Source: Promethearchaeota archaeon
GTDB lineage: Archaea; Asgardarchaeota; Lokiarchaeia; Sigyniarchaeales; SOKP01
NCBI GenBank assembly: GCA_048940925.1
Contig: JBHLOC010000002.1
Span: forward strand, 64,001 to 128,000
Length of the DNA: 64,000 bases
Reading direction: 5' to 3'
Within the stretch, counting starts at the first letter, position 1; each line of letters opens with the position of its first letter. Position numbers and translations under genes: made by a program. A model generated the notes under the pieces. The model was not told where the DNA came from. It did no database searches and saw only the letters and a program-made list of their open reading frames with translations. Of the stretch, positions 31,871 through 50,254 are shown in pieces.

Positions 31871-32974
31871 ATCGTATTATTTATCACTTATGATCCAATC
31901 GAACGCTTTCTTTCAAGCTTGACTATTACTGCTTTAATTGTGTGTAGTATATTTTTTTTATTGCAAGGTCGAAAGAGAGAAGTGTATCATGAAAAAATCC
32001 TGATGTATGGTTTTGCGAGTTTATGGATAAGCATTGGCTTAACAAGACTTTTCTTTTATTTTAGCGACTATTGGTTAGTAGGAACCTATACTGGAGATGT
32101 AGAAAGCATTTTTCAAGTAAATAATCTCCTACAAATAATAATTTATTACTTTTACATGTATCTTTACATCTATATTTATATAAATGTAATAATATTATGT
32201 TTGATGTTTGTTTGGTTTTCCATTAAATTAAAAGTTGAATTTCAAGCAATTTCCTCGATGATGGCGCTTGGTTTTACTGTATTTTTAATTGGTTGGACAT
32301 TTGAGGCAGTATCGATAAAAGCTTTAGGTTTTTTATTTTCTGGAATATCCTCTATACTTGTTTTAATCGGAGTTTTAATTGCAATTTCTCCCTTAGTGCT
32401 TGAGTTCGAATTCTTTTCTAGAAGATTAGCAATTTGGTTAATTATATCAATTATTGGTTTTATAGGCGTTTTTCTTACTTCTACATTCATCTTTAATCTT
32501 GAAACAATTGCCTTAATTTTAGTTATGATTGGATTTTTCTCAATATTATTAGGTTCAGTAATAGTATATATGATATTTTATGCAATTAGATCAACTAAAG
32601 CACCGAAGGAACAGAAAGAAGAACTTCAAGAAACATTAAGATTCTTTACTAGACGCCAAAAGTTTACAGAAGAAGAGGTCGCATTTCATAGAGAAAGAAA
32701 AATTTGTTTAGTGTGCAAAACTCATATTTCAAGATTAAGCTATATTTGCCCGGAGTGTGATGCTCTATATTGTGTTAAGTGCTCTGAGGCATTAAGTAAT
32801 TTAGAAAATGCATGTTGGGTTTGTGAAACCCCATTCGATGAAACTAAAGCCGTTCATATTGTGAGAGAAGAAAAGGCACTTTTAGAAGTTGATGAGACAA
32901 TCGTTTCTGAAATTGAAGATAAAAAAAGTAAAAAAGCACCTAAGAAAATTAAAAATGATATGAAAAAGAATTAA
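31871..32974 (+). CDS. Multi-pass membrane protein with C-terminal C4C4 RING-like domain (candidate E3 ligase); probable ATC start
   Basis: About 7 hydrophobic segments, then C-x2-C-x10-C-x2-C-x4-C-x2-C-x10-C-x2-C. GGTGA + 6 nt + ATC lies upstream of the tracked TTG. Confidence 0.7.
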   Translation: MVLFITYDPIERFLSSLTITALIVCSIFFLLQGRKREVYHEKILMYGFASLWISIGLTRLFFYFSDYWLVGTYTGDVESIFQVNNLLQIIIYYFYMYLYIYIYINVIILCLMFVWFSIKLKVEFQAISSMMALGFTVFLIGWTFEAVSIKALGFLFSGISSILVLIGVLIAISPLVLEFEFFSRRLAIWLIISIIGFIGVFLTSTFIFNLETIALILVMIGFFSILLGSVIVYMIFYAIRSTKAPKEQKEELQETLRFFTRRQKFTEEEVAFHRERKICLVCKTHISRLSYICPECDALYCVKCSEALSNLENACWVCETPFDETKAVHIVREEKALLEVDETIVSEIEDKKSKKAPKKIKNDMKKN

Positions 32975-33021: not shown

Positions 33022-33264
33022 ATGTTTTATAATACCTTTTCTATATATAACGATCTCAATTCATTAGTGAATTTACTCCTCATAATATTCTTAATAATAC
33101 CTTATGTGGCTTTATCACTTGTAGCAGTCTGGGTGTATAGAGATGCGAAAAGAAAAGGTATTAACGCTGCCGCTTGGATGCTTATCGTGTGGATAATTCC
33201 ATTTTTCATCGGTTTTATTATATATTTATCTAAAAGAGATAAATTTTTAGAAAATATTTCTTAA
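33022..33264 (+). CDS. Small 2-TM protein (PLD_N-like)
   Basis: WVYRDAKRKG...W...V...P..G.IIYL pattern. Confidence 0.7.
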   Translation: MFYNTFSIYNDLNSLVNLLLIIFLIIPYVALSLVAVWVYRDAKRKGINAAAWMLIVWIIPFFIGFIIYLSKRDKFLENIS

Positions 33265-33283: not shown

Positions 33284-34963
33284 ATGGTAGTAGAAAAACC
33301 TAAAACTAAGAAAAAAGTTTTGAAAAAGAAGAGGTTTATATCAGAACATAAACGATTAGTAGCAGGAGGAATAATAGTTGCTATTGCTATCGCAGGAGTT
33401 ATCAGTGGCATTGTTCTTTTTGTTGAAGAGCCGAAAGGAGGAATTTGTATAATAGGGATTATAGGAGAGATTGGAGACATTGACCCTATCATCCATGGAT
33501 AATCTGGATTCCACGATGAGATAGTAGTTAATCAAGTTGCCGAAACTTTATTTGATTTCGATCATAGTGGTAAACAACCTATACTTATATATACTTTAGC
33601 AAAAAATTATAAGTGGAATGATGAAGCAACAGAATTAACCTGTTACCTTAGAAAGGGGGTTAAATTCCATGATGAAACCCCATTTAATGCGACAGCAGTT
33701 AAATGGAACTTCGATAGAATCCATCGTTTGGTCACGTGTTGGGCTAAGTATTTATTCTTATTACCTGATGGACGCTGGATTGTGAATAAAACTCAAGTTA
33801 TAGATGAATATACTGTAAAATTTGTAATAAATGAACCTTTTGTTCCATTTTTACATTTGTTAACTCTTGCTACTACTGGCATTTTATCGCCAACATCCAC
33901 ACCTGCTAATAAAACCATTAACATAAATACTGATGATTTAGTTGGGACAGGACCTTTCACGTATGATGAGTATGAACCCCATGTTAATATAACAATGATT
34001 CCAAATTAACATTACTGGGGAAAGACACCTAGAATAGACAAATTGGTTTTTCAATTTTATGAATATCCCACTGAAGGTGAGGACTTATGGAATGCACTTT
34101 TAGCAAAAGAAATTAGCATTTTAGAGCCTTATTTCTATATACTATATCCGAATTGGTCAATCCAGACTCTCAAGAATGATCCAGGGATTACAGTTCGAGA
34201 AAAGCCACCTACTAATTATCGTTTTATTGGAATGAATAACAAACTCATTAATCTTACCATGCGAAAGGCAATCTCATATGCTATTAACTATACTTACATG
34301 GCTGAGGATATTTTGCCCAACAAGGCAGTAAATGCTCGTTCTTCTATTCCAGAAGGGATCATCTACTCCGATACGACTTCATTTGATGTTCCTTATTATA
34401 ACATTTCATTGGCACGACAAATATTAAAGGATGTGGGGTGGCCTGGAACCTCTGATTTAACAGCAAATGATGATATTAGTGCTGGTAACCCCTGGGAAAT
34501 GTTAGTTTCTAATGAAACACCTCTTGCGACATATACATTGGATTATATACCCGGGAATCCATTATCTACTGGTATGGCATTTCCCGTTCCAAATAATCTC
34601 AAACAAATTGGAGTCAAGGTAATAAATCAATTTAATTGGTCCTTTCCGTTGCAGCTTGTTGCATTGGGCTAGATATATGATTATAACGATCCACATAATG
34701 CTATGTTAGATTACTATAGTAAAACCAACTGGATACAAATGAATGATAGTTTGGTCGACCAATGGATAGAAGAAGGGTTAAGAGAGACTAATCCTGCTCT
34801 CAGAGAAGAGATATATTATAAGATTCAAGAACGCATTATGGAAGAACTATATCCTGTTATATTTACCTTCTCTAGTATAGAATTTAATATACAGGTAAAA
34901 AATTTGAGAGGTTGGCAACCTAATCCACTCAAAACCCAATTAAAAAACGTCTATTTTGTATAA
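33284..34963 (+). pseudogene. Family 5 solute-binding protein, copy 3, with three in-frame stops
   Basis: Four tracked ORFs share one frame. Stops are TAA 33500, TAA 34007 and TAG 34670 (at the conserved Trp of LGW..DYNDP). Sequence between the stops remains homologous. Confidence 0.85.
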
Positions 34964-35020
34964 TACAAATCTATACGAAAATTTTATGTTTTTGTTTCAG
35001 TTGCGAATTTTAGTATATCT

Positions 35021-36175
35021 TCATTCGAGAACTAAGGGTACACTTGTAAGATCGGATTCAAAAGATCCCTGGATAATTTCAAATGTTATATTATATAAAT
35101 TTTTAACCATATTTGCTATTAAATCTTTTGATGTTAAGTATAAAATACCTGTATATACAGTTGTCGGAATTTTCCCATCCGAATATAAACCATTGACAGA
35201 ATTTTTCCATCCGTAATCAAATCCATGTATTAACGTACATGTGAGATTGTAGATACTTACTATGCACCCCGGAAGTCCATATTTATCCATAAAAGTATTC
35301 CCGAAGGGTATTTCAAGAATAGCTCCTATCTTTGGATCATTATCCTCATATTTGACAAATACATCTCCATTATTAATTTTTACTATACCCGTTATATTAG
35401 CTCCAAATACTTTATATTGGTCAATATATAAATCATAATCACCATTTTCTACTTCAAAAGTCCATACACAATTTTGAGTATAGTTCACGTTCCTTGTCGT
35501 AAATTCTACATTTCCAGTTTTAACAATTCCAGTAACATAACCTCTAACTGTGCAATGGTTAAAATTATAGATAATATTACCTATGTTGATTATACCTGTT
35601 ATATTACCTTCAATATTACAGTCAGTAAAGTTATAAATAATATTGCCATTGGTGATATTAGTAATTACATTGTTGACAGAAATCCCCCAAGGAACTGTGA
35701 TTACAACACCCCCCTCATCAATGTTTGATGTAATATCAAAGATTCTATCTTTTCTAATTAACACATCTATACTTACGTTTTTTATTATCAAATTTGAAGA
35801 ATCAAACCACCTATCTGAAATTAGTTCTAATGTAAAATTAACAGCAGAACTAGTATTCTGCCATAAAAAATTGAAATAATCTGTATATGAATCTCCTTCT
35901 AAATTATGACCTACTATATCTATATTTACTTCTATCTTCATATAATAGTCAACTGGAGGAGAAATATAATATATTTTGATATCCCCTACATCAACATTAA
36001 GATTTAGTTTTTCAGTAGATGTTGGAGATTTTGGGTAATATTTGAAAATAAGAGATTCATTAATCATTTCATAAGATAAGATATTAGTTGAAAGAATGGT
36101 GATAGGGGCGACGATAATAAGACTAAAGCCTATAATAATTATTGGTATTATTACAATAATACTTTTCTTCACCAT
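35021..36175 (-). CDS. Membrane-anchored beta-rich extracellular protein, copy 3
   Basis: LNVDVGDIKIYYISPPVDY, with an internal duplication of GNIIYNF..C. Confidence 0.65.
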   Translation of the reverse strand: MVKKSIIVIIPIIIIGFSLIIVAPITILSTNILSYEMINESLIFKYYPKSPTSTEKLNLNVDVGDIKIYYISPPVDYYMKIEVNIDIVGHNLEGDSYTDYFNFLWQNTSSAVNFTLELISDRWFDSSNLIIKNVSIDVLIRKDRIFDITSNIDEGGVVITVPWGISVNNVITNITNGNIIYNFTDCNIEGNITGIINIGNIIYNFNHCTVRGYVTGIVKTGNVEFTTRNVNYTQNCVWTFEVENGDYDLYIDQYKVFGANITGIVKINNGDVFVKYEDNDPKIGAILEIPFGNTFMDKYGLPGCIVSIYNLTCTLIHGFDYGWKNSVNGLYSDGKIPTTVYTGILYLTSKDLIANMVKNLYNITFEIIQGSFESDLTSVPLVLE

Positions 36176-36350
36176 CTTTTGTTACATCCGTGAGATTTAT
36201 TAATTTTACAATTAATTAGATAAGAGAGCCTTTTATTTAAATTAATCCATCAAATATCTTTGATAAAAATCAATTTATAAAAGATAAAAATTAAAAAACT
36301 ACTAAAATAATATTTACATTATATAAGTAAAATCGAATGGTGCGAAAAAA

Positions 36351-36608
36351 ATGAGAATTACTGTTGAGGATTCAAGAACGGGAAAAGTAATCAAATTAGA
36401 TGTAAAATCTCATCACCAAATAGAAAGAATAGTTGATATTATTATAAAGCATATGGGTATTATCAGCGCAGAACAACGTTCTTATTCTTTAGTACTTAAA
36501 GATCAAGAACTCCCAAATACCATTACAATTGAGGATGCTGTTCATAAATTTGGCTTACAAGAAAATGATAAATTAATCTTATGGGCAAAAGTTGTGGGTG
36601 GGTCTTAA
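36351..36608 (+). CDS. Ubiquitin-like (beta-grasp) protein ending in GG-S
   Basis: MRITVED..TGKVIKLDV...L...TIED..GLQENDKLIL...VVGGS. Adjacent to E2/E1/JAMM. Confidence 0.85.
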   Translation: MRITVEDSRTGKVIKLDVKSHHQIERIVDIIIKHMGIISAEQRSYSLVLKDQELPNTITIEDAVHKFGLQENDKLILWAKVVGGS

Positions 36609-36634
36609 GTCTCAAGTTCAAGTTATTTTATATT

Positions 36635-37201
36635 TTAGTCATCGATGATTAAAATTTCATCATCTTCTTCTTCTTCCTCAAATAATTGATCTTCGATGCT
36701 ATATTCTTTTTTAAGTTCTTCAACCGATGTTTTATTAAAAAATTCCGCAGCTTCTAAACATATAGGATAATTTAATGGATCATCAGGATTAGGATGTTCT
36801 ACCAGAGTTCTAAGAGCTTTAATCGTCGTTTCTAAATCAGATAACCTTGACCATTTTTTTAAGACGTTCAAGCAAATATATCCTGTCCCTGTGCTCCTTG
36901 ATGGGTTTTTAACAGGATGGATATTTGGATGAAAAATGCTTGAAAACCAAGAAAAATCAATCCCACCAGGATAAGGAAATGATCTATTAATCTTCAAGAA
37001 AATTCTATGAGATGTTTGTGGTTTTAATTCACCGTCTAATTTAGTTACCCCAAAAGCATTGATTAATATTGTAAATTCAACACTATTATTACCTTTAATT
37101 ACAGAATTTTCTACTAACACTTTAAGCTTTTGAATATTTTTAAGTTCATTTTCGATCCTATCTTTCCATATTTCATACGGAAGTTCTGGCACTTTCTTCA
37201 A
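36635..37201 (-). CDS. Ubiquitin-conjugating enzyme E2
   Basis: FPYP, IFHPNI...GYICLNVLKKW, PNPDDPLN..AA. Acidic C-terminal tail. Confidence 0.9.
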   Translation of the reverse strand: MKKVPELPYEIWKDRIENELKNIQKLKVLVENSVIKGNNSVEFTILINAFGVTKLDGELKPQTSHRIFLKINRSFPYPGGIDFSWFSSIFHPNIHPVKNPSRSTGTGYICLNVLKKWSRLSDLETTIKALRTLVEHPNPDDPLNYPICLEAAEFFNKTSVEELKKEYSIEDQLFEEEEEDDEILIIDD

Positions 37202-37283
37202 CCCTTTAATTTCTTAATTTTTTATATAGAGTATTATATTGATATTTTTTTATACCTTACTTTTTTAATATTATCTTCTAAAT

Positions 37284-38168
37284 TCATTTTTTCTTTTTAT
37301 ATGAACATGTCCAGCATTCTGGGTTCTTTAATTTTTTTACAATCCTAAATTGATTTAATAAACCATTGTAATTAAGTTGTTTACCAATCAAAGGTTTTCC
37401 TATGTGAGGATGCCATTTACCATGTTCTTTAAAATAGTCTAAACCTAAAAGAAATTTCAATACTTGTTGAGATTGTAAACCACCTATAATAGATGTGGTG
37501 GTGATGATTGTTGCCATTTTTGCTATTGTCTCACCATTTTCACTTTCGATTTCTTGACCGGTACATGAAAATTTTTTCCACATGATATCTAAATCAGTAT
37601 TTGAAATACTACATTGCAAACATGCGGCATCTTCTTCTCCAGAATATACAGATTGTACACTACCATAAAATTCTTCAATTCCTGAATCTACAAAGGGAAC
37701 ATCGTTGTAATAAGCATAATTGTTTGCTTCAATTCTAGCCTCTACGTTATCTAAACATGAACATATTACATCTGATTTTGTATAGAGCTTTTTATTAATA
37801 TCTTTTAAATCCTTTTTTATTGCCATTATAGACGTGTCCGGATTTAGTTGCTCACATGCACTTTTTATAACATCGACTTTATATTCTTTATTTTGAGCGC
37901 TTTTTTCATTAAATAGTACACAACGATTTAGATTAGAAATATTAATAAAATCATAATCTATCAATATTAGTTTTCCTATACCGGTTAAAACTAAGTTTTT
38001 AACAACTTCATTGCCAGTAGCCCCTACACCGATAACCATCACTGTGGCATTAGAAATTTTACTTTGATCCCAGCCAAATATACGCTTTTGGCGATCAAAC
38101 TTATCTGAATCTATTGATTCAATCCCATAAACTTTATACTCATCTTGATTTTTTTTATTATTTTGCAT
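37284..38168 (-). CDS. Ubiquitin-activating enzyme E1 (ThiF family)
   Basis: FDRQ, GVGATG, DYD.I..SNLNR, CLDNVEAR, ACLQC, putative catalytic SCT, CWTC. Confidence 0.9.
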   Translation of the reverse strand: MQNNKKNQDEYKVYGIESIDSDKFDRQKRIFGWDQSKISNATVMVIGVGATGNEVVKNLVLTGIGKLILIDYDFINISNLNRCVLFNEKSAQNKEYKVDVIKSACEQLNPDTSIMAIKKDLKDINKKLYTKSDVICSCLDNVEARIEANNYAYYNDVPFVDSGIEEFYGSVQSVYSGEEDAACLQCSISNTDLDIMWKKFSCTGQEIESENGETIAKMATIITTTSIIGGLQSQQVLKFLLGLDYFKEHGKWHPHIGKPLIGKQLNYNGLLNQFRIVKKLKNPECWTCSYKKKK

Positions 38169-38181
38169 TTAGATTTTAAAT

Positions 38182-38685
38182 TTATGTTATGTTTGGTTTA
38201 TCAACTAAAACAGCATAGCTAATTGATTTATAACCTTTATCTGAAGAATTATCAAGAGTGAAGAATTCTAATTCATCTCTTACGGGATCTATAACTAAGG
38301 CCACCTGGAAACTTTCTGGGAAGAAATAATTTTGTGTTTTTATATCAGTTGTAGAGAGAAAGCATCCAAAATCAGGATGAGAATGCCACCATCCCAAAAT
38401 TCGAAGCGAAGGATTATTTCTTGCTTTTTTTAGTCTTTGAAACTTCTTTTCATATTTTCCTGCAGTTCCTTCTATTTGAGCTGTTGAATATTTTTCACTA
38501 TGCACTGCGCCCAAAAGAAAAAGTAGATCCTCAATAACAATATAAATATTATCTTTCCATTTTAATATATTTCCAATTAAATAGCCGAAAATTTCATTTT
38601 CAATGTTCTTACATAATTGAATAATCTTCCGAATTGTGTTATCATAAATATATACAGGAAATATATATTTTTTTTCGAATTTCAT
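38182..38685 (-). CDS. JAMM/MPN+ metalloprotease (Rpn11-like deubiquitinase)
   Basis: E(IFGYLIG)...GWWHSHPDFGCFLSTTD..TQ...ALVIDP. Confidence 0.92.
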   Translation of the reverse strand: MKFEKKYIFPVYIYDNTIRKIIQLCKNIENEIFGYLIGNILKWKDNIYIVIEDLLFLLGAVHSEKYSTAQIEGTAGKYEKKFQRLKKARNNPSLRILGWWHSHPDFGCFLSTTDIKTQNYFFPESFQVALVIDPVRDELEFFTLDNSSDKGYKSISYAVLVDKPNIT

Positions 38686-38721
38686 GATTTATAATGTTTC
38701 CAAAGTTCTATAAATATATTT

Positions 38722-39621
38722 TTATTGATACTTGGCTTTAAATCTTCCACTCTTTTCAATTATGGAATTTTGAATCATTTTGTTTATTATTTCATATATT
38801 TCTTCTTTCGCCTTTTTATCAATCGCAGAAAAACCAAAAGTTATTAATCCAAATGATTCAGTTATTTTTTCTGGTTCAAAAGATGATTTCGTCAAATCTT
38901 GAAAGTTAGCAATAATATAAAAATCTGCTTTAATTGCCCTTCTTTTTAAATGATCATAAATGTTCTTAGTCCTACCTAAATTGCCAGCACCTGAATTTGT
39001 AACGATACAAATAATATCAAATGAATCCAGTAGAGGCTTATATAAAGCAGAATTTTCATATATATCTTGTAAATTAACCTCTCTAATAATAACCTCATTT
39101 AATTTTTCAAAATTAGATAAAACAACCTTTTTTTCTAATATTTCATTAAAATCATCGTCCAATTCCAAGACAGTTTCTCCAGGAAATAAGTTTAAAATAG
39201 AAGTTTTGCCTACTCCTTCTTCTCCTATTAGCAATATCCTTGGAGGTATAAAAATATGTTTTTCGGTAAATTCATCTAATTCTTTAATAATTTTGATTTT
39301 TTTATCCCAACTAAACGATTTAAGTTTATATCGCCTAATAAATTCTCGTTTTAATAATTCTAATCGATTTCTTAATTCTAATTCTTGATCTCCCCCACCA
39401 CTTATTAGTATATACATGAAATTTTGCTCATCATAAGAATAGATAAATTTAAAGTTCGTAAAGTTCAAGGATCTTATTTTACCTCCTCCTAATTTTCTAC
39501 TGTAATCATTAAAAGTAGTGAGGTAATTTACTATATCATTATCAACAACATGGGGACTCATAAATGTTTTAGAATAACATAATTCTCCCTCTGCGGTGAT
39601 AATAAATATTTTTGAGATCAT
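38722..39621 (-). CDS. Longin domain-small GTPase fusion, paralog C
   Basis: Longin-like N-half. GEEGVGKTS P-loop, NFQD, FSA. Confidence 0.75.
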   Translation of the reverse strand: MISKIFIITAEGELCYSKTFMSPHVVDNDIVNYLTTFNDYSRKLGGGKIRSLNFTNFKFIYSYDEQNFMYILISGGGDQELELRNRLELLKREFIRRYKLKSFSWDKKIKIIKELDEFTEKHIFIPPRILLIGEEGVGKTSILNLFPGETVLELDDDFNEILEKKVVLSNFEKLNEVIIREVNLQDIYENSALYKPLLDSFDIICIVTNSGAGNLGRTKNIYDHLKRRAIKADFYIIANFQDLTKSSFEPEKITESFGLITFGFSAIDKKAKEEIYEIINKMIQNSIIEKSGRFKAKYQ

Positions 39622-39667
39622 TCCAATTTTGTATTAATTTATTTTAATAATTTTTATTTTTTTCATT

Positions 39668-40564
39668 TTAAATTTGTTTTTTCATAATCTTTTCTACTAT
39701 TGAAGATTTTACCATCTCACTAATTATGTCATTTATTTTTCCTTTTGCCTCTTTTTTAATTGCCGAGAGCCCAAAAGTTTTAACTCCAAATATTTCCTCT
39801 ATTTTTTCGGGTTCAAAAGATGTGCTTTCTAAATCTTGAAAATTAGCAATAATGTAAAAATCAGCTTTCTTTACTCTTTCTTGTAACATAGAAAATAATC
39901 TTTTTGTTCTTCCCAAATTACTAGCTCCAGAGTTAGTGACAATACATATAATATCAATAGCATCTAAAAGTGTTCTATAGACTTTTGTATTGTCAATCAA
40001 TTCTTTTAGATCAAGTTCTCTTAAAATTAATTCGTTTATTCTATCGAAAACAGGTAAATGTATTGGCTTTTGAATTATTTCAATTAAATCATCATCTAAT
40101 TCTATTATAGTTTCTCCCGGAAATAAATTCATGATTGTACTCTTTCCCACTCCATCTTCGCCAACTAGTAAAACTTTAGGAGGAATAAAAATATTTTTTT
40201 CTGCAAACTCATCAAATTTTTCATATTTAGTTGTTTCACATGACCAGTTTTTTAAATCCTCATAATATCTCTTCATAAATTCCTCTTTAAGTAACTCAAG
40301 TTTCGCAGTGACTTCTTCCTCTGGGTCATTAATATCAGTTACTATAATAAACATTCCTAGTTTTTCATCATCATAAGTATAAACAAAATTGAAATTTCTG
40401 AAGTTTAATGACTTTATTTCTCCACCCCCTATTTCTTCAGCTATATTGCTAATCGCGGTTAGAAATCCACTTATCAAATCACCACTAATTTGATCATCAC
40501 CGATAAATGTCTTTGAATAGCAAAGCACGCCACCAGGACCAATAATAAGTATTTTTGAAATCAT
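39668..40564 (-). CDS. Longin domain-small GTPase fusion, paralog B
   Basis: ILII..GGVLCYSK...LISGFLTAI...EIGGGEIKSL longin signature. GEDGVGKST, NFQD, LSA. Confidence 0.8.
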   Translation of the reverse strand: MISKILIIGPGGVLCYSKTFIGDDQISGDLISGFLTAISNIAEEIGGGEIKSLNFRNFNFVYTYDDEKLGMFIIVTDINDPEEEVTAKLELLKEEFMKRYYEDLKNWSCETTKYEKFDEFAEKNIFIPPKVLLVGEDGVGKSTIMNLFPGETIIELDDDLIEIIQKPIHLPVFDRINELILRELDLKELIDNTKVYRTLLDAIDIICIVTNSGASNLGRTKRLFSMLQERVKKADFYIIANFQDLESTSFEPEKIEEIFGVKTFGLSAIKKEAKGKINDIISEMVKSSIVEKIMKKQI

Positions 40565-40693
40565 TTTGGGGTTTATATTATATCCATTTATTAATTAATT
40601 TAATAATAGAAAGATTGATTATTTAAAATGATCATATGAAATTTCAACAATTATAAATATATTATTCTCATTTAAATACAATTGTGAAATATT

Positions 40694-40843
40694 TTGGATG
40701 AAAGAGACGAAGATACGCAACCCCATGATAAGGAACCAACAATTATAAGCTCCGAAGATCAAGAAATTAAAGAAAAGAAACCTCCAAATGATAAAATAAT
40801 TTATTGTAAAATAGTAGAAAATGATAAGAATTCAGATTTTTAA
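40694..40843 (+). CDS. Possible 49-aa acidic microprotein
   Basis: TTG start after GTGA. MDERDEDTQPHDKEPTIISSEDQEIKEKKPPNDKIIYCKIVENDKNSDF*. Confidence 0.35.
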   Translation: MDERDEDTQPHDKEPTIISSEDQEIKEKKPPNDKIIYCKIVENDKNSDF

Positions 40844-40907
40844 AATAAAGAAGCCTAACTTTAGTAAAACTAATTTAATTCACTTTTTTGAAAAAATATA
40901 GCCAAAA

Positions 40908-41858
40908 TTAATTTAAAATAATAGTAATATCGTCATCATTCTCTATTTTACTCCCATCTTGTTCTTTTTTAGAAGAAGAATATTTTTTAATAATTGAGTA
41001 TTCAACCATTTCTGTAATTATGTTATAAATTTTTTTATTTGCCTTTTTTGATATAGCTGAGATACCAAAAGTCTTTATTTTAAAATATTCTTCAATTTTT
41101 TCGGGCAGAAATGACATATCTTTTAAATCTTGGAAGTTAGCAATTATATAGAAATCGGCTTTTTTTACTTTTGGTTTCAAAAGAGTGAACAGTCTTTTTG
41201 TTTCTTTTAAATTCTTTGCCCCTGAATTGGTAACGATACAAAAAATTTCCACAGAGTCTAAGAATTGTTGATGAGTATTCAAATTATCAATTAAATCACG
41301 TAGATCAATTTCCCTGACAATAATTTCCCCTATCTCTTTTAGTTTTGGTAAATAAATTGTTTTTTGTATAATATCATTCATATATTCATCCAGTTTTATT
41401 ACTGTATCTCCTGGAAATAGATTCATAATAGTCGTTTTTCCCACACCAACTTCTCCAACTAACAATATTTTAGGAGGAATAAAAATCTGTTTCTCAGTAA
41501 ATTCATCAAAGCTTTTAAATTTTCTAATATCATAATCCCAGTTTTCTAAATCATGTCGATATCGTTTCATAAACTCCATTTTTAATAATTCTACTTTATA
41601 TCTTATTTCGTCTTCCAAGTCATCAACGTCAGTTATAATTATGAATATATAAGATTTTTCATAATTGAAGGAATAAAAAATATTAAAGTTCCTAAAACTT
41701 AGAGATTTTATTTCTCCTCCACCAATTTCCTTAGCAATGTCGCTAACAGCTGTAAAGAAACCACTTACAAAATCTTCATCTATTCTTTTTTCATCCATAA
41801 ATGATTTTGAATAACAAAGAACTCCATTAGACTTTATAATTAATATTTTCTTAATCAT
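40908..41858 (-). CDS. Longin domain-small GTPase fusion, paralog A
   Basis: FVSGFFTAV...EIGGGEIKSL. GEVGVGKTT, NFQD, ISA. Confidence 0.8.
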   Translation of the reverse strand: MIKKILIIKSNGVLCYSKSFMDEKRIDEDFVSGFFTAVSDIAKEIGGGEIKSLSFRNFNIFYSFNYEKSYIFIIITDVDDLEDEIRYKVELLKMEFMKRYRHDLENWDYDIRKFKSFDEFTEKQIFIPPKILLVGEVGVGKTTIMNLFPGDTVIKLDEYMNDIIQKTIYLPKLKEIGEIIVREIDLRDLIDNLNTHQQFLDSVEIFCIVTNSGAKNLKETKRLFTLLKPKVKKADFYIIANFQDLKDMSFLPEKIEEYFKIKTFGISAISKKANKKIYNIITEMVEYSIIKKYSSSKKEQDGSKIENDDDITIILN

Positions 41859-41917: not shown

Positions 41918-43816
41918 TTATAATTCTTCAATCTCCGCAAGAAAAATATCTGCTATTTTATTCCACTTCTCTTTAATATCCGATTGAGTTGATGCTGAAT
42001 TTGTCATTTCTTTTCCCTTTTTCAAGTTTTTTACAGCTAGTTCATCACTTTTGAGTTCTTTATAACAGATACCTAGCTTAATATAAGTTTGATTAATATA
42101 CCATTCGTTATTGGCTATTTCTATTACCTTTTGAAACTGCTTTATGGCATTTTGATAGTCTTGAAAATACATTAATATTTCTCCGTATGTATCGTAATAA
42201 ATTCCAGTCTCTGGATTACGCTTAATGAGATCACGAATAACATCCAATGATTCTTCCTCCTTATTTAAATATTGTAACCAATAAGCTTTATACACTAGTA
42301 GTTCATTATCCTTTGGATATTTCTGAAGTAATTCATTAATTATTTCAAATCCATCTTTAACCTCCTTTATTCTTTTAAGTACAGAAGCTTTTTTCATTTT
42401 GATATCCTTTTCACTTTCAGGAAATATTTCTAGCATTTCATCTAATAAATTTATAATTTCGTCTATTTGGTCAAAATAGATTAAAATTTTGATTTTAGAA
42501 TAATATAATTCAAGATTTTTTGGAGTTTTTTCGATGTCTTGATTAATCTCTTCAAGTTCCTTTTTATATTGCTTTTCTAAATCTTCTGAATTCTGCGTTT
42601 GAAATACTTTTAGCATACCCTGCCAGATAATTCCCTCTAATTTATCATATTCCTCTTTTAACTCTACTTTTGCTTCAATCTTATATGCTAAATAGTTAAT
42701 GTAATTTGGTAAAAATTCCCTTAAGGATTCCTTTAATCTTTCATCAAATAGTAAATCGGTAATTTCCTCTAAAATACTATTTAATGTGGTATTAATATCT
42801 ATTGATCTTGAAAATAATTTATCTAGATAGGTAAATTCACTGATGGAATCTTCAGTAATTGCACGTATTATTGTTTCTAACTTTTCATTTTCCTGGAAGT
42901 AATAAAAATTGCCGGGAGGTACCTTTAATTTAAAAAATTTTATTGGATATATGTTATTCTCTACAATTTCATCAATATAATAAGTAAGCGTATTCTCCTT
43001 AATTCCATATTTTCGGGAGAATTCTTCAGATGAAATATATTCTGGATACCGAACAGGATGATTCAATGAAAGATATAACAATATTTTATGAAAATCATCC
43101 TCATTTTTTAACAAAGACTCAACTCTATTATAATCTAGTTTTAATACGTTGTTGAGAAACCTAAATTGTGTGCGTGTATCATTTATGTTAAACTCATCAA
43201 AAAAATTTAGTGTCTTGCGAGCAACTTCTTCAATTCTCTTACTTTCCTCTTCCAAAATCGTTTGTCTATCTAAATCATAATATTGCAACATTCGTGAATA
43301 CTCAGATTTACCTACTTGAGTAATTCTGTATTCTTTCTTATCATCATCTTTTCCTACATACCCATTCCTTATCATTAATTTCATTGTCTTGGATAATGAT
43401 GACTGATTAATAGAAAGCGGTTCTGCTAGAAAATCTGCCCACTTGCAGTAGTTATTATTATACAACATCCACAAAATCCAATGGTCATAATTCCTACTCT
43501 TTAACATTATTTCAGGAGGATAACTCAACGTTCTTTTTTTCTTCTTTACTTTAGATAAATCATGGAATCTTCTCTTGCCTTCAGACGTGATTTTATAATG
43601 TCCTTTTGAAATTTTATTTATATACTTTTCATTTATTAACGTTGTAAGGTATCTTGAAAGTGTAGATGTAGATATTTCAAGTGGTTCCTGAATAAAATCA
43701 GACCATTCACATTCTTTGTTATTATATAACATCCAGAGAATGATATGCTCGAAATTTTTCTTTTCTAAACTTGGAGGGTTAAAAATTTCTTGAGGTGGGT
43801 AATTTCGACTTGACAT
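41918..43816 (-). CDS. Tandem winged-HTH (MarR-like) + TPR protein, paralog 1
   Basis: Two repeats of YP...HxILWML.NN..C...F...P..I..SxLS...L...Y.IT..GK. C-terminal TPRs (YYDTYGEILM, TYIKLGICY). Confidence 0.75.
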   Translation of the reverse strand: MSSRNYPPQEIFNPPSLEKKNFEHIILWMLYNNKECEWSDFIQEPLEISTSTLSRYLTTLINEKYINKISKGHYKITSEGKRRFHDLSKVKKKKRTLSYPPEIMLKSRNYDHWILWMLYNNNYCKWADFLAEPLSINQSSLSKTMKLMIRNGYVGKDDDKKEYRITQVGKSEYSRMLQYYDLDRQTILEEESKRIEEVARKTLNFFDEFNINDTRTQFRFLNNVLKLDYNRVESLLKNEDDFHKILLYLSLNHPVRYPEYISSEEFSRKYGIKENTLTYYIDEIVENNIYPIKFFKLKVPPGNFYYFQENEKLETIIRAITEDSISEFTYLDKLFSRSIDINTTLNSILEEITDLLFDERLKESLREFLPNYINYLAYKIEAKVELKEEYDKLEGIIWQGMLKVFQTQNSEDLEKQYKKELEEINQDIEKTPKNLELYYSKIKILIYFDQIDEIINLLDEMLEIFPESEKDIKMKKASVLKRIKEVKDGFEIINELLQKYPKDNELLVYKAYWLQYLNKEEESLDVIRDLIKRNPETGIYYDTYGEILMYFQDYQNAIKQFQKVIEIANNEWYINQTYIKLGICYKELKSDELAVKNLKKGKEMTNSASTQSDIKEKWNKIADIFLAEIEEL

Positions 43817-44452: not shown

Positions 44453-44995
44453 ATGAATGAGTCTGGAAAAGAATTACGATTTAAGATTACAGTTATAGGA
44501 GATGGAAAAGTAGGAAAGACATCTCTTATTAAAAAATTCACTCAGGGTACATTTGATACTAACTATGTCGAGACGATTGGGGCTCAATTTTCCAAGTATG
44601 ATAAAAAAATAGATGGGGATAATATAAGATTATTATTTTGGGATATTGCAGGTCAAGATTCATTTCACTTTTTACGTCCTTCTTTCTTTAGAGAGAGTTC
44701 TGCTGCTATTATTGTATATAGTCTTGAAAAAAATGAGCTTGGAAGCCGAAGTTTTGAACATATAACTAATTGGTATGAGGATGTTAATCGTTTTTGTGGA
44801 CAAATCCCTATTGTTATATTTGCTAATAAGGTTGATCTAATTGAAGAAGATAAACTAGACCACTCACAAATTCAAAAAATTGTACAAAAACACAATTTTC
44901 TAGATTATTTTATTACTTCTGCGAAATCAGGACAAGGAGTTTATAAGGCATTTAATGCAATTATTAATAAATTGTATAATGATTTAATACGCTAA
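44453..44995 (+). CDS. Rab-like small GTPase
   Basis: GDGKVGKTS, TIG, WDIAGQ, NKVD, TSAK. Confidence 0.92.
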   Translation: MNESGKELRFKITVIGDGKVGKTSLIKKFTQGTFDTNYVETIGAQFSKYDKKIDGDNIRLLFWDIAGQDSFHFLRPSFFRESSAAIIVYSLEKNELGSRSFEHITNWYEDVNRFCGQIPIVIFANKVDLIEEDKLDHSQIQKIVQKHNFLDYFITSAKSGQGVYKAFNAIINKLYNDLIR

Positions 44996-45515: not shown

Positions 45516-46115
45516 CTACAATGCTTCGTATCCTAATCGTAAGGCTTTTAAATTAGCTTCAATAGCTTTCTTAGGTACTACTTTCGGAATGATATCTATC
45601 AGCTGTTCCAAACCTAATGGGAAACCGTTAATTTTAGCTAGAGAACCTAAAAGAGCAACATTTAAGGTAAGGGGGTTACCTGCTTTTTTAGCTATATCTA
45701 AAGCATCTATAATATGAATATTTTTTGTCACCTCTCGTAATTGTTCTACTATCCTTCCAATAGTAATGTATGGTATCTCAGGATTTTTCACTCGCTCAAA
45801 AGTACTTTGAATAGGATGCCATATATAGTTGTTTAAAATAATAATTCCATTCGGTTGTAAGTATTCTATATATCTCAATGTTTCTATCGCTTCTATTCCA
45901 AGTAAAACATGCGCTTCTCCGTAAGGAATTAAGGGAGAATACACTTCCTTTCCAATACGAATATGTGTATAGATTGAGCCTGAACGCTGAGCTAATCCAT
46001 GAGTTTCTGCAGTTCTAATTTTTAAACCGAATTCAGCACAAGCTAATCCTAAGATATTTGACATTAGCATTAACCCTTGACCTCCAACACCACATGTCAT
46101 TATGTTATAAGTCAT
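45516..46115 (-). CDS. iorB: Indolepyruvate:ferredoxin oxidoreductase beta subunit
   Basis: GVGGQG, ETHGLAQRSGS, N.ALLG. Confidence 0.9.
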   Translation of the reverse strand: MTYNIMTCGVGGQGLMLMSNILGLACAEFGLKIRTAETHGLAQRSGSIYTHIRIGKEVYSPLIPYGEAHVLLGIEAIETLRYIEYLQPNGIIILNNYIWHPIQSTFERVKNPEIPYITIGRIVEQLREVTKNIHIIDALDIAKKAGNPLTLNVALLGSLAKINGFPLGLEQLIDIIPKVVPKKAIEANLKALRLGYEAL

Positions 46116-48102
46116 GACGAATCTCCCTGAGTATTTTATATGGTTTGATTACATTATGTTCGGAAGGGTGCTCTGGATCAGTATATGGACAAATTATGGA
46201 ACATACCCCACATCCATCGCATAACTCAGCAGAAATATGCGAAGAATAACCTTTCCACATCTTTCCATCTTTATCAGAGAAATCAGTGATGCTAGATTCC
46301 ATATGTATAGCAGGACAATAAAAATCTTGCATACAGGTATGACATTTTCGACATATTGTTTGATCCACATAATAGGGTTGAATCTTTTCTCCTCTTTTTC
46401 TCTTGTTTCTATCCTTCCAAAGTGCACAAGGTCCTCGGGATATAATAATCGAAGGACCTGGTCTCTCTAATGCCTTTTTAAATGCAGGGACGCAATTTTT
46501 AGTATCAAAACAATCATTGATGACAATATTGGTAAATCCAATCCCCTTAAGAACATTTTCAATCAGAATCCTATTTTTAGGAACATCACCAGCTCCGTAT
46601 CCTGTACCGGGATTTGGTTGCTGTCCTGTCATAGCGGTTACAGAATTGTCTAAGATTATGACAACTACATCTTCATTATTATTGCAGATATTTATTATTC
46701 CAGGTAAACCAGCATGGAAGAATGTGCTATCGCCAATCACTGAGATTACTTTTTCATTAGCGGCTAATGAAACACCACTCGCTGTTCCTAATGTAGCACC
46801 CATAGCTAAAAGTAAATCATCAGCATTCATCTTCGAATAAACATCTTTATTCAATAAAAGCATCGAATAACAACCAATATCATTCATGAAAGCAATTTTA
46901 TCAGATTTTCCTGTTAATGCTCTGTTTAATGCCCAAAAAGTAGATCGATGGGGGCATCCAGGGCAAAATACGGGAATTCTGGCAGGCAATATCGATTTCA
47001 GCTTATTAGATCTTTCTAAATATGCTTGGTATTCAATATCAGTCTTAACATTATAAATGTCCTTAAATGCTTTGAAGACAATTGGAACATTATATTCGAA
47101 TGCTTCTCTAAAATGATTAGATTCTTTCCCAAAAATCTTGAGATCCGGATTTACATCCTTAGCTAATGCTTTCACATTTTGTTCAAGATATGGAGATAAT
47201 TCTTCTACAATAATTACTCCTTTTAGTTTCTCTATGAAGTTATTAATTAAATTTTTAGGTAATGGATATGTCGTTCCTAATTTCAAAATCGGTGGGTTAA
47301 TTTGGAGTTTTTTGCAAGCTTCAAGTACGTAGTTGTATGATACTCCGGAAACTATTACGCCGTAGTTTGAAGTACCATTAATTAATGAATTGAATTGTGA
47401 GGTTTCAAAATCGTTTCTGATTTTGTCCCTTTTTTCAAGAAGTTTTAATTTCAACTCTCTAGCTTTGCTTCCTACAGTTGCATATTTTTTATTACCTTTT
47501 CTAAAACTCCCTGAGGTAAATTCAGTTCTCTTTATTGGTTCCAACGGTACAATTGTAGATTGATGATTTATTCTTGTTGTAGTTCTAATTAAAACAACGG
47601 TTTGATATTTTTCTGACAAATAAAATGCTGATTTAACCATTTCTTTAGCTTCTACAGGATCAGTAGGTTCTAACATAGGAATGTACGCATTTGAAGCAAA
47701 AAATCGTCCATCTTCTTCACTCTGTGAGGAATGACAGAAGGGATCATCTGCAAAAACTAATACACATCCTTTATTTATTCCCGTATAACCTAAACTAAAG
47801 AATGTATCTGAAGCTACGTTAAGGCCTACACTTTTCATTGCTGTAAATGATCTCTGGTCTCCCATAGATGCTCCGGCTACGATTTCAAGAGCTACTTTTT
47901 CATTAGAAGCAACTTCCATTTTTATATTAAATCTATCAGCAATTTGCAAAAATGTATCTAGTATTTCTGATACTGGAGATCCTGGATAAAATGCTACGAC
48001 CTTAACATCAGACTCAAGAGCAGCTCGAACAATAGCTTCATTACAAAACAGAAAAGCATTCGACTTTTTATTTGAAATAACATCTGAAATCATCGTTATC
48101 AT
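46105..48102 (-). CDS. iorA: Indolepyruvate:ferredoxin oxidoreductase alpha subunit
   Basis: NEA..R, YPGSP, NEKVALE, MKSVGLNVA, FCPGCPH, DIGCY, GDSTFFH, ferredoxin domain. Confidence 0.92.
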   Translation of the reverse strand: MITMISDVISNKKSNAFLFCNEAIVRAALESDVKVVAFYPGSPVSEILDTFLQIADRFNIKMEVASNEKVALEIVAGASMGDQRSFTAMKSVGLNVASDTFFSLGYTGINKGCVLVFADDPFCHSSQSEEDGRFFASNAYIPMLEPTDPVEAKEMVKSAFYLSEKYQTVVLIRTTTRINHQSTIVPLEPIKRTEFTSGSFRKGNKKYATVGSKARELKLKLLEKRDKIRNDFETSQFNSLINGTSNYGVIVSGVSYNYVLEACKKLQINPPILKLGTTYPLPKNLINNFIEKLKGVIIVEELSPYLEQNVKALAKDVNPDLKIFGKESNHFREAFEYNVPIVFKAFKDIYNVKTDIEYQAYLERSNKLKSILPARIPVFCPGCPHRSTFWALNRALTGKSDKIAFMNDIGCYSMLLLNKDVYSKMNADDLLLAMGATLGTASGVSLAANEKVISVIGDSTFFHAGLPGIINICNNNEDVVVIILDNSVTAMTGQQPNPGTGYGAGDVPKNRILIENVLKGIGFTNIVINDCFDTKNCVPAFKKALERPGPSIIISRGPCALWKDRNKRKRGEKIQPYYVDQTICRKCHTCMQDFYCPAIHMESSITDFSDKDGKMWKGYSSHISAELCDGCGVCSIICPYTDPEHPSEHNVIKPYKILREIRHDL

Positions 48103-48340: not shown

Positions 48341-50254
48341 TTAATGTGAAGGTGATTCTTGTTTTTGTTCCCTTATTTCTGCAAGGAAAAGGTCTATAAT
48401 AGGTAACCATTTATTTTTTGAATCAAGATCACTTATAATTTTATTTGTCAATTCTTTTCCTTTCTTAAGATATCTTCTTGCTAACTCAAAATCTTCAAGT
48501 ACTGTATAACAGATTCCTAACTTTATATACGTCTGGTGTATATACCACGCAGTAGGCTCAAATTCTATGGCTTTTTGGAATTCTTTTATGGCTTTTTCAT
48601 ATTCTTTAAAGGATATCAAGATCTCTCCATAGGTATCATGATAAATTCCTTTTTTTGGTTCATTTTCGGTTAGATTCTGAAGAATATCCACAGCTTCTTG
48701 TTGTTTCCCCAGATATGATAACCAATATGCTTTATAATTAAATAAATTAGTATCATTTGGGTATTTTTCGAGTAACTGTTCAATAATTTCTAAGCCAGCT
48801 TCTAGACTTTTATCTCTTTTAAGAGTGTATGCTTTTTTTATCATGATATCCATTTCTTGTTCTGGGAATTCTTCAATCATTTTCTCTAATACCATCAATG
48901 CATCATTATATTGGTTAAAATAAAGGAGAGTTCTAAGTTTTGAATTATATAATTCATAGTTCTTAGGATTTAGGTCGATTTCTTTATCAATTTCTTTAAT
49001 TTTTTCTTCATATTGAGTTTCTAATGTTTCAGAATTCAGGGAATGCATAAGCTCTGTCATGTTCTGCCAGATTATTCCTTCTAGTTTATCATAAGTTTCT
49101 TTTAAATCTCTTTTCGTCTCAATTTTATAAGCTAAATATTTTATATATCCTGGTAAAAAATCTCTTAATGATTCCTTGAAATGTTTATGGAATGTGGTTT
49201 CACAAATTTCATCAAGAATATCATCTATAGTAGAATTTAAGTCACCAGTCCTTCCAAATTTTTCCAAATATTTGTTAGTTGCAATATGTTCTTCAGTAAT
49301 AGCTCGAAGTATCTTCTCTAGTTTTTCATCTGAATGAAAATAATAATATTTATCTGGAGAAAATTCTAACTTAAAGAACTTAAGGTCATATAAATCGCTT
49401 TCTACAATCTCATTTACCCAAAAATAAACGGTTCTCTTTTTAATTGTATAATATCTTGAAAAATCCTCAAAAGATAGATAATCGGGATAAAAATCAGGAT
49501 GGTTAATTGATATAAAGAGTAAAATTTTATGGAAATCCTCTTCATTTTTTAATACTCCTTTTACTTTTGAATAATCTAATTTTAACACATTATTAAGAAA
49601 TCTAAATTTGACATGGTCATCAGTTATTTTGAATTTATCAAAAAATTGGGATGTCTTTATAGTAATTTCATCAATCCTTTTCCTTTCCTCTTCTAAAATT
49701 GTTTGTCTGTCTAAATTATATTGTTGAAGAATCTTCGAATATTCTGCCTTTCCTGATTGAGTAATTAAATATCTTTTGTTTTCGTTGATGATAAATCTCT
49801 TTTTGATTAATGAACTTAGACTTTTTGATAAGGATGATTGATTTATAGAAAATGGTTCCTCAAGAAAATCAGACCTTTTACAAAAACCATTATTGTACAC
49901 CATCCATAGAATCCAATGGGAATAATTCCTCACACTTTTTAAAATGATTTTTGGTGGATAACTCAACTTTCGTTCCTTTCTTCTTTCTTTTGATAACTCA
50001 TTGAATTTCTTTTTCCCTTCTGCAGTTATTCTGTATTGTCCTCTCGCAAACTTTTCAATAAATCCTTTAAAGATTAATCTTGTGAAATGACGCGATAACG
50101 TAGAAATGGGAATTTCAATTGGTTTTTGCTCAAAATTAGACCATTCACAACTTTCATTATTTGCCAACATCCAAAGAATTATATGGTCATAATTCTTTCT
50201 TTGTAGTTTCGAGGGGTTAAGAATCTCGTCAGAGGGATAATTTAATTTTCCCAT
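48341..50254 (-). CDS. Tandem winged-HTH + TPR protein, paralog 2
   Basis: Full-length similarity to 41918..43816 (LDRQTILEEE, EDFHKILL, YDKLEGIIWQ). Confidence 0.78.
   Translation of the reverse strand: MGKLNYPSDEILNPSKLQRKNYDHIILWMLANNESCEWSNFEQKPIEIPISTLSRHFTRLIFKGFIEKFARGQYRITAEGKKKFNELSKERRKERKLSYPPKIILKSVRNYSHWILWMVYNNGFCKRSDFLEEPFSINQSSLSKSLSSLIKKRFIINENKRYLITQSGKAEYSKILQQYNLDRQTILEEERKRIDEITIKTSQFFDKFKITDDHVKFRFLNNVLKLDYSKVKGVLKNEEDFHKILLFISINHPDFYPDYLSFEDFSRYYTIKKRTVYFWVNEIVESDLYDLKFFKLEFSPDKYYYFHSDEKLEKILRAITEEHIATNKYLEKFGRTGDLNSTIDDILDEICETTFHKHFKESLRDFLPGYIKYLAYKIETKRDLKETYDKLEGIIWQNMTELMHSLNSETLETQYEEKIKEIDKEIDLNPKNYELYNSKLRTLLYFNQYNDALMVLEKMIEEFPEQEMDIMIKKAYTLKRDKSLEAGLEIIEQLLEKYPNDTNLFNYKAYWLSYLGKQQEAVDILQNLTENEPKKGIYHDTYGEILISFKEYEKAIKEFQKAIEFEPTAWYIHQTYIKLGICYTVLEDFELARRYLKKGKELTNKIISDLDSKNKWLPIIDLFLAEIREQKQESPSH

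Follow-up and report, generated by a model that had tools for sequence, protein, structure and literature searches.

The 64,000-nucleotide stretch of Promethearchaeota DNA analysed here (the window) contains a ubiquitin-type conjugation cassette, composed of a ubiquitin-like modifier (Ubl), an E1, an E2 and a JAMM metalloprotease, together with three genes that code for longin-GTPase fusion proteins (LG proteins). Comparison of related genomes supports that the cassette and the LG genes are passed on as one conserved unit. The reading favoured here, with moderate confidence, is that of a lineage-specific accessory ubiquitylation module of the Lokiarchaeia (Promethearchaeia), associated with the membrane, in which the LG proteins would serve as a non-catalytic adaptor or regulator.

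Linkage of the ubiquitin cassette and the LG genes

On the minus strand, the genes for LG paralog A (LG_A, 40908..41858), paralog B (LG_B, 39668..40564), paralog C (LG_C, 38722..39621), the JAMM protease (38182..38685), the E1 (37284..38168) and the E2 (36635..37201) follow each other. The gaps are 46 nucleotides (nt) between LG_B and LG_C, 36 nt between LG_C and JAMM, 13 nt between JAMM and E1 and 82 nt between E1 and E2, and LG_A, located 343 nt upstream of LG_B, possibly belongs to a separate transcript. The Ubl gene (36351..36608, plus strand) converges on the E2 gene, with 26 nt between the two stop codons. An earlier prediction made from this DNA (the original prediction) had described these seven genes, with their positions, the four gaps and the Ubl-E2 convergence, and all of it was reproduced from the open reading frames. 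Inspection of the AT-rich spacers of the locus for promoters and terminators was uninformative.

The distribution of the module was analysed in 161 genomes of the class, using cut-offs of E ≤ 1e-35 for the clade of LG proteins found with the cassette (referred to below as the degenerate clade) and E ≤ 1e-50 for the E1 ortholog. Each of the two is present in 73 genomes: 70 contain both, 3 only LG, 3 only the E1 and 85 neither. One of the three LG-only genomes (G045) contains a truncated E1 beside LG-JAMM; in this closed genome the E1 frame that follows LG-JAMM (locus L056) is only 113 amino acids long, and the E2 ortholog is found 1 Mb away, beside a gene with a weak gelsolin-repeat match. Presence is patchy, and LG and E1 match genus by genus. 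In the six genera of the window's family the module is found in 41-42/53 (the window's genus; 41 of its 53 species), 14/42 (its sister genus), 4/6, 1/2, 6/10 and 2/7, and in a second family it is carried by 4/4 genomes. The LG and E1 queries gave no match in the other families among the 161 genomes, including the MK-D1/Lokiarchaeum family and closed genomes of 4.4 and 6.0 Mb. The module is, then, accessory and confined to two Lokiarchaeial families of one order.

Gene maps were drawn for 60 fetched loci. In about 47 of the 51 that could be judged, an LG-type gene is located directly upstream of the JAMM gene and in the same direction, with gaps of -26 to 83 nt. This adjacency spans nine genera, six in the window's family and three in the second one, where LG identity falls to 32-37% and LG-JAMM-E1 are still contiguous, the E2 gene being elsewhere. 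LG orthologs share 46-72% identity versus 65-85% for the enzymes. The same order is also found in an unrelated metagenome contig, which carries LG, JAB, ThiF and UQ_con genes plus a convergent gene of 85 amino acids. The original prediction had tied the ubiquitin genes to the longin-GTPases in this one locus, and the neighbourhood comparison extends the linkage to related genomes: retained across nine genera and two families, and at about a third identity, it is well beyond chance. Among the remaining loci, the one of G130 is rearranged. In G111, a 72-residue remnant of an LG longin domain (G111:C2:172758-172931) lies a short way upstream of the cassette, some 600 nt from the E1 gene, and an intact LG copy is present on another contig.

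The Ubl precursor, which ends in ...VVGG-S, gave only a weak match to Rad60-SLD (SUMO-like) when its single sequence was compared with Pfam; a profile of 12 orthologs aligns residues 7-84 to residues 6-76 of ubiquitin (polyubiquitin, E 1.9e-17). Ubl orthologs are 58-94% identical, and the GG is invariant in 30 of them and is followed by 0-15 variable residues, so that most copies need trimming and a few do not. The E1 has a ThiF/MoeB-type adenylation domain (Pfam ThiF 2.3e-49), and its GxGxxG motif, Arg29, Asp140, the catalytic Cys202 and the four cysteines of the Zn site are invariant in 52 orthologs. The E2 has a UBC fold (Pfam UQ_con 1.5e-10) and its PDB matches are eukaryotic E2s, with Pex4 on top and UBE2H, UBE2C and Rad6 among the others. 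In the two families, the cassette orthologs conserve the HPN motif and the Cys of GYICLN; the alignment also included three distant E2s from other families, which share the HPN and the Cys only. The JAMM/MPN+ metalloprotease is Rpn11-like (Pfam JAB 5.8e-12; PDB matches to Rpn11 at 6e-10, the Rpn11-like entry 6fjv at 1e-9, and CSN5), with E31, H101, H103, S111 and D114 invariant and the E...HSHP...S..D signature in all the aligned orthologs. The catalytic motifs that had been reported as intact (E1 Cys, E2 HPN..C, JAMM HxH..S..D) are thus present in the window and conserved in the ortholog alignments. By these matches and motifs, the cassette, with its ThiF-type E1, UBC E2, Rpn11-like JAMM and Ubl precursor, is eukaryote-like.

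The C-terminus of the E2 (window 36635-36700) is composed of an acidic run, a hydrophobic stretch and further acidic residues (here EEEEDDEILIIDD). This tail is common to orthologs of both families and is not found in the three distant E2s. It looks like a beta-strand motif of the SUMO-interaction type, through which the E2 could hold the Ubl non-covalently.

LG proteins with a degenerate G-domain

An AlphaFold2 (AF2) model of LG_B, built from an alignment of 49 sequences, reached a predicted local distance difference test score (pLDDT) of 90.3. In this model the N-terminal 125 residues follow the strand and helix order of a longin domain, beta-beta-alpha-beta-beta-beta-alpha-alpha, and the C-terminal part is a G-domain. 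A profile of the N-terminal domain matches AP-2 sigma (6e-8) and also AP-3/4 sigma, Bet5 and Mon1, and Pfam assigns Fuz_longin_1 to 17/52, Longin to 9/52 and Clat_adaptor_s to 9/52 LG members. The C-terminal domain gave fold matches to the G-domains of Arf, Arl, Sar, MglA and FeoB. The label of longin-GTPase given by the original prediction is therefore backed by the AF2 fold, the N-domain profile and the G-domain matches, which all agree. The domain architecture does not correspond to that of the Rag GTPases, the order of the domains being reversed and the partner domain being longin rather than roadblock.

The LG family is small, with 310 cluster representatives at E ≤ 1e-3 among 1.84 billion proteins, and its few named records come from Promethearchaeota and Thorarchaeota metagenome-assembled genomes. 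Most members carry canonical G1-G5 motifs. The cassette-linked proteins form one clade in the tree (100/99 support) with a long stem, in which the G1 P-loop is kept (GE(D/V/E)GVGK(S/T), invariant) and both switches have been lost. The switch-I Thr of G2, found as (I/V)PT in canonical relatives, is replaced by an acidic stretch (ELDDD, for example), and the G3 DxxGQ (WDxAGQE in canonical relatives) by RE(L/I/V)(D/N)L(K/R/Q)(E/D)(L/I), so that its Gly and Gln are gone. In G4 the N, Q and D are invariant (N-x-Q-D, mostly NFQD), the Lys of NKxD being Phe here and Trp, Met or Lys in LG relatives. Because the switch-I Thr and the switch-II DxxGQ are lost, the cassette-linked LG proteins are, on sequence grounds, pseudo-GTPases from which classic switching is not expected. 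This makes unlikely the earlier suggestion that they are nucleotide-gated, at least in the classic sense. Since the P-loop and the guanine-specificity motif are kept and both switch residues are not, the G-domain probably holds nucleotide without cycling. According to the tree and the gene maps, the degenerate clade appears to have arisen once, and it is essentially the set of LG proteins found with the cassette.

The three paralogs of the window are a lineage-specific tandem expansion (100/95 clade), in which LG_B is nearest to the single-copy orthologs and LG_C adjoins JAMM; the same three-paralog layout is found in G008, G030, G005 and G021. Two further features of the degenerate clade are not found in canonical relatives. 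A Lys in the former switch-I region (K164 of LG_C) is invariant in the clade, and in an LFPGE motif that follows the P-loop helix the Pro-Gly is nearly invariant. Either could be a replacement phosphate contact or, in the case of the lysine, an acceptor site.

In many species the LG protein beside JAMM is a protein of 860-890 amino acids, composed of LG, a TPR-like region and a CN_hydrolase (nitrilase) domain (Pfam 1.2e-9; for example L039:9778-12420), in whose translation the nitrilase-superfamily motifs with Glu, Lys and Cys are legible. All 35 longer clusters of LG homologs are such LG-CN_hydrolase fusions. In some genomes separate TPR and nitrilase genes coding for 1,000-1,277 amino acids stand beside the cassette or JAMM (loci with the fused or the separate form include L084, L086 and L093), and in other variants the pseudo-G-domain alone is joined to the TPR-like region. 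No TPR-nitrilase homolog was found in the window's own genome. Across these variants the pseudo-G-domain is therefore the constant element, and it behaves like a module that joins other parts to the cassette.

A probable membrane RING protein and the proposed working of the module

The gene at 31919..32974 (plus strand) codes for a polytopic membrane protein with at least five strongly hydrophobic segments (labelled as seven-transmembrane, 7TM) and a C-terminal C4C4 finger, CxxC-x10-CxxC-x4-CxxC-x10-CWxC-xxP. The eight Cys are invariant in 22 homologs and the Trp and Pro are conserved. The core of the finger was modelled by AF2 with a pLDDT of 85-91, and the top 50 Foldseek and the top 50 VIA-align matches of this structure are all RING or U-box domains. 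Their scores (Foldseek best E 0.013; VIA-align Z 5.1-7.0 with a root-mean-square deviation of 1.6-3 A) are modest, as expected for a finger of about 60 residues. The next gene (33022..33264, plus strand) codes for a two-pass membrane protein of 80 amino acids, tm80, which accompanies the RING gene. In many loci the orthologs of tm80 (46-69% identity) are flanked by the RING gene on one side and the Ubl or LG genes on the other. The RING gene and tm80 neighbour the Ubl gene in most related loci, and in two of them (L090 and L091) RING, tm80, pseudoGTPase, JAMM, E1 and E2 follow each other in that order on one strand. With its invariant cysteines, its fold matches and its neighbourhood, this protein is a candidate E3, probably of the RING type. 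The original prediction had presented the locus as one tied to longin-GTPases instead of a RING E3; the tie to LG holds, and the locus does have an E3 candidate.

In the window, RING-tm80 and Ubl are separated by about 3 kb (33300-36250) that hold a fragment of a family-5 solute-binding protein (SBP) gene (34043..34672, which covers positions 176-319 of the 368 in the Pfam model) and one copy of an unknown gene that is repeated (35021..36175). Given that the RING-tm80 and Ubl genes are adjacent in relatives, this stretch looks like an inserted, decaying copy of an SBP/unknown module that is repeated upstream.

The module would be composed of the core and two fixed parts: one to three LG genes upstream of JAMM in the same operon, and the membrane RING protein with tm80 by the Ubl gene. 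JAMM would trim the tail of the Ubl precursor and probably also remove conjugates, and the E1 would activate the trimmed Ubl and charge the E2. The membrane RING protein, with its finger on the cytoplasmic side, would recruit E2~Ubl to the membrane. LG, a longin platform plus an Arf/Sar-like G-domain, may act as a non-catalytic adaptor or regulator that links the soluble enzymes, JAMM being the likeliest, with the membrane ligase or with clients. Ubiquitin tagging would thus probably be wired here to a membrane-associated adaptor. Complex prediction, which had been suggested for the longin-GTPases with E2, Ubl and JAMM, was run for JAMM and LG_C with ortholog alignments. The median score was 0.57 (0.64, 0.57 and 0.54) versus 0.00 for all three controls, with a partner pLDDT of at least 74 and a contact agreement between runs of at least 80%. 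A score of this class is weak support and is more often wrong than right unless the pairing was likely beforehand; because the adjacency is conserved, it can be read as tipping the balance slightly in favour of an LG-JAMM contact.

Several observations weigh against this picture. The related genomes are not independent samples. In G119 big TPR and nitrilase genes adjoin JAMM and there is no LG by the cassette, G103 contains the E1 and no LG of the degenerate clade, and two members of this clade (P0004 and P0005) are on contigs without ubiquitin genes (one of the two adjoins a metallo-beta-lactamase gene). Among the longer homologs, there is no fusion of LG to JAMM, E1, E2 or RING. The Pfam RING matches of 31919-32974 are below threshold and the RING call comes from a middling fold match, with Z at most 7.0. 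Nucleotide binding by the degenerate LG G-domain, plausible as it is, is deduced from its motifs.

A more ambitious version of the module would be an independent membrane machine of the two Lokiarchaeial families for ubiquitin sorting or quality control, in which the 7TM-RING, E1, E2, Ubl and JAMM are served by an obligatory LG that selects membrane clients or gates deubiquitylation, with the TPR-nitrilase fusion added in some species. The nitrilase-fused LG brings to mind the eukaryotic N-degron pathway with its Nta1 amidase step. This version is tentative and rather unlikely; if true, trafficking-type longin/Arf modules would have been coupled to ubiquitin signalling independently in a prokaryote. 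A role of LG as a non-canonical E3, bridging E2~Ubl and substrates, had also been put forward, and the minus-strand operon of the window does indeed contain no RING gene. However, a membrane protein of RING/U-box fold is a conserved neighbour of Ubl and constitutes a conventional E3 candidate, and fold and profile searches reveal no E2-binding fold in LG. Because the RING candidate exists, the E3 role is the least needed of the options that had been proposed and the least likely of the rivals, with very little chance of being correct.

Operon linkage would be equally explained if LG were the main substrate of the cassette, with Ubl and JAMM regulating an LG scaffold whose real task is a different one (such as membrane remodelling together with the Rab-like GTPase encoded nearby). 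The Lys invariant in the clade at the former switch I (LG_C K164) and the faster evolution of LG relative to the enzymes would also suit a substrate. However, a substrate gene is rarely retained at the head of an enzyme operon when lineages have diverged to the level of families, LG copies vary from one to three with the enzymes unchanged, and the LG-JAMM prediction is weak. The fusion of LG to CN_hydrolase, an enzyme, points in addition to a module for targeting; such a role, or a regulatory one, fits the nitrilase fusion better than a substrate role, and the substrate explanation appears improbable. Even less probable is a role of the module in conflict or antiviral defence, as in Bil/Bub or CBASS Cap2/Cap3, with LG as an NTPase-like sensor and the nitrilase or membrane proteins as effectors. 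It would account for the patchiness within genera (41/53, 14/42, 6/10 and 2/7) and for the variable architecture of the non-enzyme parts; the fused nitrilase domain matches a defence-associated reverse transcriptase-nitrilase model (4.8e-14), and E1 and JAMM weakly match CBASS E1-E2 and JAB models. Nevertheless, the PADLOC and NCBIfam matches are generic (E1 domain 7.7e-18, JAB 8.6e-8) and, among the families that these model sets list, there are none for E2, Ubl or LG. The nearest matches of E2, Ubl and JAMM are eukaryotic E2s, ubiquitin and Rpn11, respectively. Within subclades the flanks are syntenic; they contain genes for substrate-binding proteins, regulators and GTPases, and none was recognised as belonging to a defence system or a mobile element.

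Finally, LG could be an independent GTPase-type module that shares a transcription unit with the cassette and is co-inherited without joint function. Asgard genomes are full of longin, roadblock and GTPase genes (there are dozens in this one), and P0004, P0005 and G119 show that LG and cassette are separable. Against this, presence and absence match almost perfectly (70/3/3/85), adjacency is kept at 32-37% identity even where the E2 gene moved away, and the degenerate clade is of single origin and essentially cassette-associated; this explanation is very unlikely. The adaptor or regulator role of LG is the reading carried into the comparison below.

Neighbouring genes and relation to known systems

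Upstream of LG_A, a gene on the minus strand (41918..43816) codes for a wHTH-wHTH-TPR protein (Pfam HTH_34, MarR and TPR), probably a regulator, which in about 10 loci of the genus likewise precedes LG; it is frequent and not constant. A canonical Rab/Ras-like small GTPase (44453..44995, plus strand; Pfam Ras 1.4e-41) has orthologs of 57-75% identity within about 5 kb in 18 of the about 26 loci of the genus, and is not constant either. Pairs of wHTH-wHTH-TPR and Rab-like GTPase genes are present in at least five copies in the genome (56-64% identity), including those at window 41918-43816 and 48341-50254 and others on contigs C57 and C10, and they seem to form a module separate from the ubiquitin cassette. 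Just past the Rab-like GTPase gene, window 45516-48102 contains genes for two subunits of a pyruvate/2-oxoacid:ferredoxin oxidoreductase (POR gamma and a thiamine pyrophosphate-binding subunit with a ferredoxin domain). No ESCRT genes were recognised among the annotated genes of the window, which cover part of the 64 kb.

Eukaryotic cells contain polytopic membrane RING ligases, such as Hrd1, MARCH and Pex2/10/12, the latter working with the E2 Pex4. The membrane protein described here is likewise a multi-pass protein with a finger of probable RING type and a dedicated E2 gene beside it, and Hrd1 and Pex RINGs are among its fold matches. In contrast to them, its finger is C4C4 and its membrane part has no detected similarity, so that the likeness is one of working principle only. 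Longin domains are also paired with Arf-family GTPases in eukaryotes, as in the SRX domain of SR-alpha with SR-beta and in the AP sigma/mu longin domains with Arf1. LG shares with these pairs a longin platform and an Arf-like G-domain at membranes, together with the profile matches to AP-2/3/4 sigma, but here both are in one polypeptide, the G-domain appears switch-dead and the partners are ubiquitin enzymes, the likeness being at the domain level only. One source labels the fusion as 'signal recognition particle receptor subunit beta'.

Within the Asgard archaea, fusions of longin or roadblock domains to GTPases have been described as 'Rag/Arf-like' (bioRxiv 10.1101/2020.10.19.343400; PMC10933270). 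The LG proteins belong to the same wider family, with an N-terminal longin and a C-terminal Arf/Rag-like G-domain; unlike those fusions, the cassette clade lacks the G2 Thr and the G3 DxxGQ, has mostly NFQD in G4 and is linked to ubiquitin enzymes. Neither the switch loss nor the ubiquitin linkage is mentioned in those two papers. The linkage had been put forward as undescribed, and a full-text literature search of partial coverage found no paper that links longin-GTPases to a ubiquitin cassette or notes the switch loss.

Compact sets of Ubl, E1, E2 and JAB genes are also known from bacteria, in ubiquitin-like operons that include the 6A-E operons (PMC1779556) as well as Bil, Bub and CBASS Cap2/Cap3. 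The module resembles these defence operons in its compactness, its lineage-specific extras and its patchy distribution. It differs from them in that the E1 and E2 are separate and eukaryote-like, in that the matches to defence models are generic, and in that no CD-NTase or other known effector was recognised. The closest relatives of the cassette are the eukaryote-like ubiquitin operons of Caldiarchaeum subterraneum and Asgard archaea, composed of Ub, E1, E2, a small RING protein and an Rpn11-like JAMM (PMC5654768, PMC9192718). Common to both are a tailed modifier with GG, a ThiF-type E1, an HPN...Cys E2, an Rpn11-like JAMM and, nearby, a finger that is here of probable RING type. In this module, however, that finger forms the tail of a multi-pass membrane protein and not a small soluble protein, LG heads the enzyme operon, and the module is an accessory of two Lokiarchaeial families. 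The locus had been read as a possible prokaryotic precursor of ubiquitin-controlled GTPase signalling in eukaryotes, a view that receives no support from this restricted distribution, which, being accessory and bound to two families, argues instead that the module was invented within this lineage and did not directly give rise to the eukaryotic system; so narrow and patchy an occurrence cautions against tracing eukaryotic pathways straight back to clusters of this kind. Archaeal ubiquitin cassettes and Asgard longin-GTPase fusions, each known and hitherto treated apart, are joined here in one conserved unit with a membrane protein of probable RING type. The module offers a natural example of a putative pseudo-GTPase recruited into a ubiquitin pathway and, with its six to eight proteins, a testable link between ubiquitin and trafficking-type adaptors outside eukaryotes.

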